Virus record (IMG/VR): IMGVR_UViG_3300042922_000265
Coordinates: 32,001 to 96,000 of that record
DNA length: 64,000 nucleotides
Reading direction: 5' to 3' (one strand)
Source of the DNA: a virus
How positions within the stretch are numbered: position 1 is the first letter of the stretch; each line of letters starts with the position of its first letter. This document shows, in pieces, positions 13,223 to 13,293 of the stretch. Both the position numbers and the translations under genes were made by a program. A model generated the notes under the pieces. The model was given only the letters and a program-made list of their open reading frames with translations, did not search any database and was not told the DNA's origin.

Positions 13223-13293
13223 GCAGTGCGCACAACCCGTGACGCCGCACCCCCATGAGTGGAGGTGACCAGACTCGAACTGGCCCCCGCTGC
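13223..13293 (-). ncRNA. circularly permuted tRNA mimic (YrlA-like, minimal)
   Basis: order T arm (GCCAG-TTCGAGT-CTGGT), closed acceptor hairpin (CACCTCC-ACTCAT-GGGGGTG), D-like arm, closed by GCAG/CTGC. Confidence 0.7.

Follow-up and report, generated by a model that had tools for sequence, protein, structure and literature searches.

A 71-base element on the minus strand of a phage tRNA array, with the look of a tRNA turned inside out, is given here an even chance of being the tRNA-like module of a YrlA-type Y RNA in stand-alone form, free of the Ro60-binding handle that the other Y-like RNAs of the phage carry. The element lies at positions 13293-13223 of the window, that is, of the whole 64,000-nucleotide (nt) stretch analyzed here (bases 32,001-96,000 of the virus record IMGVR_UViG_3300042922_000265), whose positions are used as coordinates. 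The record spans 167 kb with terminal repeats, and its closest cultured relatives are the Myrna-type (cluster C) mycobacteriophages Myrna, Phabba, and ScoobyDoobyDoo. The array occupies 11.5-17.1 kb on the minus strand, with 27 tRNAs and a one-piece transfer-messenger RNA (tmRNA) called by ARAGORN, and the element sits between a tRNA gene and a tRNA-like gene, in a 283-nt stretch of it (13143-13425) where the default tools make no calls. What sets it apart is the absence of a handle, an acceptor of the alanine and tmRNA type, and the absence of an orthologue in the collections searched.

All 20 base pairs (bp) of the element are standard, G3:U70 included, and the acceptor is paired at 7/7 positions (Table 1). 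The spacings are those of a canonical cloverleaf in permuted order, with the acceptor end sealed and the anticodon side open. The anticodon arm is absent and neither ARAGORN nor Rfam calls a tRNA, so that the element does not count as a contiguous canonical cloverleaf. An earlier note on this DNA had described the permuted order, the closed 7-bp acceptor, the missing anticodon arm, and the lack of a CGA/TCG scaffold, all of which are borne out to the base on the minus strand, where the handle motif is absent. The G3:U70 pair and A73 that it placed in the closed acceptor are confirmed by direct reading, which also finds G1-C72 and G2-C71, completing the identity set of alanyl-tRNA synthetase (AlaRS).

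Table 1. The 71-base element, part by part, with its two neighbours (window positions)
Feature	Position	Strand	Basis or remark
Non-canonical tRNA-Arg(CCG), upstream neighbour	13296-13364	minus	Rfam tRNA-Sec model, 23 bits; ARAGORN at -ps80
GCAG, 3' strand of the 4-bp closing helix, anticodon-stem position	13290-13293	minus	pairs with CTGC 13226-13223
CGGGG, 5-nt variable-loop equivalent	13285-13289	minus	read from sequence
T arm GCCAG/TTCGAGT/CTGGT	13268-13284	minus	5-bp stem, canonical 7-nt T loop; ARAGORN places a 3' tRNA domain here
Acceptor 3' strand CACCTCC (positions 66-72)	13261-13267	minus	7/7 pairs with 13254-13248
Discriminator A73	13260	minus	read from sequence
CTCAT linker sealing the acceptor, U at -1; with A73, ACUCAU	13255-13259	minus	read from sequence
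Acceptor 5' strand GGGGGTG (positions 1-7), G3 opposite U70	13248-13254	minus	read from sequence
CG connector	13246-13247	minus	2 nt
D-like arm GCGT-CACGGGTTGT-GCGC, GG in loop	13228-13245	minus	4-bp stem
A26, 1-nt connector	13227	minus	read from sequence
CTGC, 5' strand of the closing helix	13223-13226	minus	4 bp with GCAG
ATCAT, single-stranded 3' tail up to the next tRNA-like gene	13218-13222	minus	5' counterpart CA 13295-13294
tRNA-like gene, 8-nt anticodon loop TGAAACAC, downstream neighbour	13144-13217	minus	ARAGORN only with -ps

Kinship with the modules of YrlA-type Y RNAs

In YrlA, a Y RNA of bacteria to which the Ro60 orthologue Rsr binds, a 5' Ro60-binding motif (GNCGAAN0-1G) is combined with a tRNA-like module whose parts run V, T arm, closed acceptor-like stem, and D arm; YrlA has been reported in 22 Ro60-encoding phages, mycobacteriophages included (Chen et al. 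2014, PMC4201824). The YrlA of Mycobacterium smegmatis, singled out by its 7-bp acceptor, is cut by RNase P in vitro and in vivo and gains CCA, and its two halves stay bound to Rsr (PMC4201824). The element follows the same order as YrlA (RF02553), its RNA likewise ends in the position of the anticodon stem, its acceptor has the 7 bp of the M. smegmatis RNA, and, as in the YrlA phages, its genome encodes both Ro60 and a canonical YrlA.

This kinship is supported by a covariance model, R1, built from the element alone with the permuted cloverleaf as its structure (self score 114 bits), which picks up independent modules of Y RNAs with E values from 1.6e-6 to 1e-2. Its best match among Y RNAs, at 29.7 bits, is an RNA in the tRNA array of ScoobyDoobyDoo (L014:4014-4093), which bears a TCGGTTATC...CCGGC handle and the identical ACUCAU sealing loop. 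The YrlA of Phabba, 66 nt upstream of the annotated Ro gene, scores 25.6 bits, an array Y RNA of Phabba 23.7 bits, and the Ro60-adjacent YrlA of the element's own genome 18.6 bits, against at most 17.6 bits for the junctions of adjacent (dimeric) tRNA genes. The best foreign match of all is the permuted tmRNA of cyanophage S-CAM1, at 34.2 bits. A match of 17.9 bits at 5336-5414 was set aside as chance because it contains many non-standard pairs.

The element was also aligned over its full length with four Y-RNA modules, namely that of ScoobyDoobyDoo, the two of Phabba, and the Ro60-adjacent one of its own genome. In this alignment (A2), which was fitted to the R1 model and thereby favours pairing, 97.9% of cells hold standard pairs and 15/20 pairs are changed on both sides, a result reached by none of 500 shuffles (0/500), and sliding the partners by 1-3 columns lowers the pairing to 40-46%. 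The closing helix (helix 1) is kept in 94% of cells and the D helix (helix 4) in 100%, and the T-arm helix covaries. Judged by this alignment, all four helices, the short closing helix included, are common to the element and to bona fide Y-RNA modules. The sealing loops of the modules follow one pattern as well, in which A73 is followed by C-C-A, C-C, or C-U, and then by CAU before G1 (A-C-Y-(A)-CAU); the array Y RNA of the window has ACCCAT, and ACUCAU is found again in the S-CAM1 tmRNA.

Handle-bearing Y-like RNAs are encoded in the same phage as well. An open reading frame (ORF) of 580 amino acids for a TROVE/Ro60 protein lies outside the window (G000:C1, ~6.7-8.1 kb; L008), with a canonical YrlA directly upstream on the same strand (core L008:2206-2282) that reads ...GGGCCGA-TCGCTAAT-TCGGTTATC ... 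T arm - CACCGGC-ACCACAT-GCCGGTG - TA - D arm. A YrlB-like RNA consisting of a handle only is also found directly upstream of the Ro60 ORF, on the same strand. Within the array, four minus-strand spacers (13504-13611, 13694-13828, 15042-15173, and 16497-16623) combine this same handle with differing tRNA-like cargo, permuted in two of them; the handle in these Y-like RNAs runs as a stem, GGGYCGA, a hairpin, TCGGTT...CGGCY...AT-RYCC, and a stem. The handle-bearing sisters score 23-40 bits on RF02553, the best of the window's four reaching 33.5, all below the gathering threshold of 69 bits. RNAs of the 16497-16623 type match 187 mycobacteriophage records, in which nothing is annotated at that place.

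Like the array Y RNAs at 16497-16623 and in ScoobyDoobyDoo, the element fills a spacer between tRNA genes on the array strand, and shares with them the T arm, the closed 7-bp acceptor, and the 4-bp D-like arm with a 10-nt loop containing GG. In contrast to their TCGGTTATC...CCGGC handle, it has the 4-bp closing helix in the handle's place, and its 3:70 pair is G:U where theirs is G-C or U-A. It also departs from YrlA in having G3:U70 and a non-canonical D arm, in lacking the GNCGAA or GGGYCGA...TCGGTT motif and the long terminal stem, and in being placed inside a tRNA array ~38 kb from Ro60. Three other array spacers contain the handle motif CCGA-N5-12-TCGGTT, which is missing within and beside 13218-13296, where the flanks CA and ATCAT directly abut the adjacent tRNA and tRNA-like genes. 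Chen et al. looked for YrlA on the same strand within ~4 kb of Ro60; here Ro60 is at ~6.7-7.6 kb of contig C1 and the element at 45,223-45,293. Taken together, these comparisons suggest that the element is best filed as structurally related to, and working like, a YrlA module, outside formal membership by its lack of a Ro60 handle, its location, and its Rfam score. The earlier note had framed it as a minimal tRNA, and a module of the YrlA type is the better description.

A chance juxtaposition, in which the 3' fragment of one tRNA gene came to precede the 5' fragment of an unrelated one, would draw on the abundance of T-arm, acceptor, and D-arm junctions in tRNA arrays and on the warning that dimeric tRNAs may mimic the YrlA model (Chen et al. 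2014, PMC4201824). This origin is highly improbable, given that only 4 of the 702 non-cognate combinations of 5' and 3' strands from the 27 array tRNAs (0.6%) pair at 7/7 acceptor positions, and that the junctions of adjacent tRNAs in the array (n=26) reach 0-6 of seven pairs, typically ~3. It would also have to produce a further 4-bp closing helix at exactly the correct spacing and the ACUCAU loop of the ScoobyDoobyDoo Y RNA, and to accommodate the higher R1 scores of Y modules over junctions. Neither half is accompanied by the remainder of a tRNA, with 36 nt between the end of tRNA-Arg(CCG) and A73 and 37 nt between G1 and the next gene. A tRNA-Pro(agg) proposed by ARAGORN at -ps80 (13259-13332), which uses the T arm of the element, was rejected for its three acceptor mismatches and its overlap with tRNA-Arg(CCG), as were overlapping ORFs of 86, 121, and 170 amino acids, which belong to no Pfam family and run through tRNA genes. 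Because full acceptor pairing is rare, the partner halves are missing, and these overlapping proposals fail, the two halves of the element belong together and are not the junction of two tRNA genes.

Competing origins

The resemblance to the tRNA-like domain of tmRNA that the earlier note had pointed out is real, and underlies the proposal that the element is a remnant or miniature of a two-piece tmRNA, reduced to its tRNA-like domain, charged with alanine, and engaging SmpB and EF-Tu. As in two-piece tmRNAs (RF01851, RF04321), a T arm is followed by the acceptor 3' strand, a short loop, and the acceptor 5' strand. Over a run of 22 nt, TCACCTCCACTCATGGGGGTGC, which takes in the CTCAT loop, the element is identical to the acceptor junction in the permuted tmRNAs of two Synechococcus phages, S-CAM1 and S-CAM3 (these tmRNAs score 127-128 bits with Rfam cyano_tmRNA), and it shares with those RNAs G3:U70, A73, and the lack of an encoded CCA. 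In line with this, the S-CAM1 tmRNA is the foreign RNA that R1 matches best, the permuted tmRNA that ARAGORN calls at -ps80 has its 5' and 3' tRNA domains exactly at the element, and the 5' sequence GGCGUCACGGG resembles the GGNUUCGACNGG of tmRNA. However, this origin is very unlikely. With the next tRNA-like gene starting 37 nt beyond G1, there is no room for a tag frame or pseudoknots, and the spurious tag of the ARAGORN call crosses tRNA genes and is reported as 'not identified'. The element has no mRNA-like domain, pseudoknots, or long P2 helix, no Rfam tmRNA family matches it at E<=10, and its 4-bp D stem is absent from tmRNA, S-CAM1 deleting that stem in the R1 alignment. The phage already possesses a one-piece tmRNA, whose different acceptor (GGGGCTG/CAGCTCC) means that the element is not a recent copy of it, and no SmpB gene was found in the phage genome. 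By structure, moreover, the element groups with the Y-RNA modules of A2. In the cyanophages themselves, the two-piece tmRNA gene (L005:1432-1746 in S-CAM1; L006 in S-CAM3), with an ARAGORN tag of ANTSDSAANNIVAFSRSTVAA, is unannotated in S-CAM1 and overlain by a 'hypothetical protein' coding sequence in S-CAM3. A different kind of permutation is known from Cyanidioschyzon merolae and other algae, where the 3' half of a tRNA gene comes first and the acceptor ends are joined by a linker that is removed by RNase P and 3' processing; these tRNAs have a full anticodon arm and pass through a circular intermediate made by splicing machinery of the eukaryal and archaeal type. The element shares the order of the halves and the short acceptor linker, and differs in lacking an anticodon arm and a bulge-helix-bulge motif. 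A true permuted tRNA would require the fragment to be circularized, so that CA and ATCAT form a 7-nt loop, AUCAUCA (U33, anticodon CAU), and then opened at the acceptor. The leftover flanking bases do number exactly seven and put T at position 33, and the re-joined 73 nt are called tRNA-Met(CAT) by ARAGORN, at the relaxed setting only and not at the default. Such a tRNA is nevertheless scarcely conceivable: its anticodon stem would be mismatched or just 4 bp long, C37 would be unusual, a CAU anticodon on a tRNA of alanine identity would cause miscoding, the genome has no gene for an RtcB or Rnl2 ligase, and a limited search of the literature produced no such pathway in bacteria or phages.

Several observations weigh against the reading as a Y-RNA module. 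The element's minimum free energy (MFE) is no better than that of shuffled sequences (z = 0.11) in this G+C-rich DNA, and because the thermodynamic stability is unremarkable, the case for the element rests on its specific features. U8, A14, and the 15-48 Levitt pair depart from the canonical pattern, and the closing helix is only 4 bp long. The 3:70 pair of the related modules is G-C, U-A, or C-G and never G:U, so the conservation of G3:U70 in homologues that the earlier note had named as its touchstone is found in 0/4 related modules of A2 and in neither of the window's two other closed-acceptor modules. The Rfam models of YrlA (RF02553), tmRNA, and tRNA give no match to the element at E<=10, and A2, as noted, leans towards pairing. 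Scans of 50,697 phage records, of IMG/VR, and of a metagenome collection yielded no orthologue, so that conservation of the locus cannot be demonstrated, and in each relative examined the slot that separates tRNA-Arg(CCG) from tRNA-Arg(CCT) is different, which marks it as a site of fast turnover.

Searches for relatives were made in several ways. A blastn-short search of the whole phage genome returned chance words only and no paralogue. Exact and degenerate scans of IMG/VR with the junction, the 5' piece, and the loops gave only chance matches, which fell in a coding region (L003), in a non-tRNA contig (L004), and in a lone stretch resembling a tRNA 3' half, without a tRNA call (L010). A 35-nt neighbouring spacer conserved with Myrna, used as an anchor, recovered only Myrna in IMG/VR and nothing in the metagenomes, where a stem-tolerant pattern for the element found no match either, and no relatives were found via the neighbouring helicase protein. 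ScoobyDoobyDoo and Issimir have nothing in the slot, which measures 1 nt in the former and 10 nt in the latter. In Myrna it holds an ORF with an HNH-like motif, read from its own sequence and not annotated in the record (L001:1060-1450), which suggests homing-endonuclease traffic at the site. In Phabba it holds an unannotated 92-nt piece (L007:1098-1189) in which GGTGAC...GTCACC, in unpermuted order, encloses a T-arm-like hairpin, CCAGG-TTCGCGA-CCTGG; this piece may be a degenerate, unpermuted tRNA-like relative of the T-arm and acceptor half of the element.

From this pattern it is possible, if doubtful, that the element is a relic, left when a Y-RNA module or tandem tRNA-like genes lost their handle or outer halves in a recombination-prone slot, and now transcribed, degraded, and without function, with G3:U70 arising by a C-to-U transition in a GGG/CCC stem. 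Such an origin would fit a singleton without an orthologue in the collections searched, the varying content of the slot, the missing handle, the ordinary MFE, and a D region without U8 and A14; the G3-C70 of the ScoobyDoobyDoo module is one transition away. Decay would, however, be expected to break pairs, and here 20/20 pairs are intact, the T loop is perfect, and the U at -1 is kept. The genome holds no close paralogue as a recent source, which argues that the copy is not young, yet it is undamaged, and the neighbouring tRNA-like gene also carries G3:U70 and A73.

The surrounding array

On the minus strand, the stretch without default calls consists of a stem-loop (13419-13368), tRNA-Arg(CCG) (13364-13296), the dinucleotide CA, the element (13293-13223), ATCAT, and the tRNA-like gene (13217-13144). 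The tRNA-Arg(CCG) has a 6-bp D stem (CGCCAG/CTGGCG) and is missed by default ARAGORN and by the Rfam tRNA model; in Myrna, Phabba, and ScoobyDoobyDoo its homologues carry a tRNA-Arg annotation, and Issimir has an unannotated one (L013:7740-7810). The downstream tRNA-like gene has G3:U70 and A73, a D loop in which CC replaces GG, and the T loop TTGGATT. It has no Rfam tRNA match at E<=10, and no homologue of it was found in other phages.

The stem-loop at 13368-13419 comprises 52 nt that read GGGCTGA-CA-GGCCGA...TCGG-CGGGCAATA-CC-GACA-TCAGCCC, and looks like a Y-RNA handle without cargo. Its 38-nt core is identical in Myrna, and its closing stem differs there by two compensatory double changes (GGGCTGA/TCAGCCC vs GGGATGG/CCATCCC). 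The MFE fold of 286 nt contains a long-range helix that joins 13425-13413 to the D region of the following tRNA-like gene; this helix was discarded because its 5' partner instead forms the local stem that covaries with Myrna. Elsewhere in the array, on the same strand, a 211-nt spacer (13907-14117) shows long nested stems and no tRNA call, and a spacer beside a Y-like RNA (16419-16492), with a weak match to the tRNA-Sec model (25 bits), may be another non-canonical tRNA.

Maturation, alanine identity, and biological meaning

If the element is a stand-alone YrlA-type module, its maturation can be sketched by analogy. A search of the array for promoter-like sites came up empty, as did one for terminator-like sites close to the element, which would accordingly be transcribed along with the tRNAs. 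A piece of ~78 nt would then be set free, at its 5' end by the 3' processing of tRNA-Arg(CCG) and at its 3' end by RNase P cleavage ahead of 13217. As in M. smegmatis YrlA, RNase P would be expected to cut 5' of G13254 (between 13255 and 13254), at a 7-bp stem stacked on the T arm with U at -1, and the 3' side would be trimmed and tailed with CCA, possibly by the phage's own enzyme of the PolyA_pol/CCA-adding family. Two pieces would result, ~37 and ~41 nt long, that stay joined through the 7-bp acceptor, the 4-bp closing helix, and contact between the D and T loops. Such a nicked tRNA-like particle would present the acceptor and T-arm half, and could thus act as a tRNA mimic towards enzymes that read that half. 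The earlier note had also proposed that opening of the loop and addition of CCA would yield a two-piece tRNA-like RNA, a notion that has a direct experimental precedent in the M. smegmatis YrlA, where cutting by RNase P and CCA tailing were demonstrated in vivo (PMC4201824).

The PolyA_pol/CCA-adding nucleotidyltransferase family is represented in the phage by an ORF of 399 amino acids (114 bits; G000:C1:127305-127679, minus strand; L015). It is relevant because most of the phage tRNAs here lack an encoded CCA, which is generally absent from the tRNAs of the array.

AlaRS charges acceptor minihelices that carry G3:U70. With G1-C72, G2-C71, G3:U70, and A73 all in the acceptor, charging of the element by this enzyme can be envisaged, and is regarded as unlikely rather than far-fetched. 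The neighbour at 13144-13217, which shares G3:U70 and A73, is only a second instance, and could be taken as suggestive. A broader proposal, that the two are phage-made alanine-accepting tRNA look-alikes working without Ro60, entering stalled ribosomes in the manner of tmRNA or else serving as decoys for host factors or toxins acting on the aminoacyl-acceptor end, is improbable to a still greater degree.

The function of the tRNA-like module of Y RNAs is explicitly stated as not known by Chen et al. (2014, PMC4201824), and no later answer appears in the literature searched. The unusual features here are the missing handle and the alanine/tmRNA acceptor. A handle-free natural module among real tRNA genes, with an acceptor of this type, would offer a ready-made test of whether such modules act on their own, and would pose the question of whether they do so via RNase P, the CCA-adding enzyme, and perhaps AlaRS. 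Even if the element is only a relic, it still documents the gain and loss of such modules in phage tRNA arrays.

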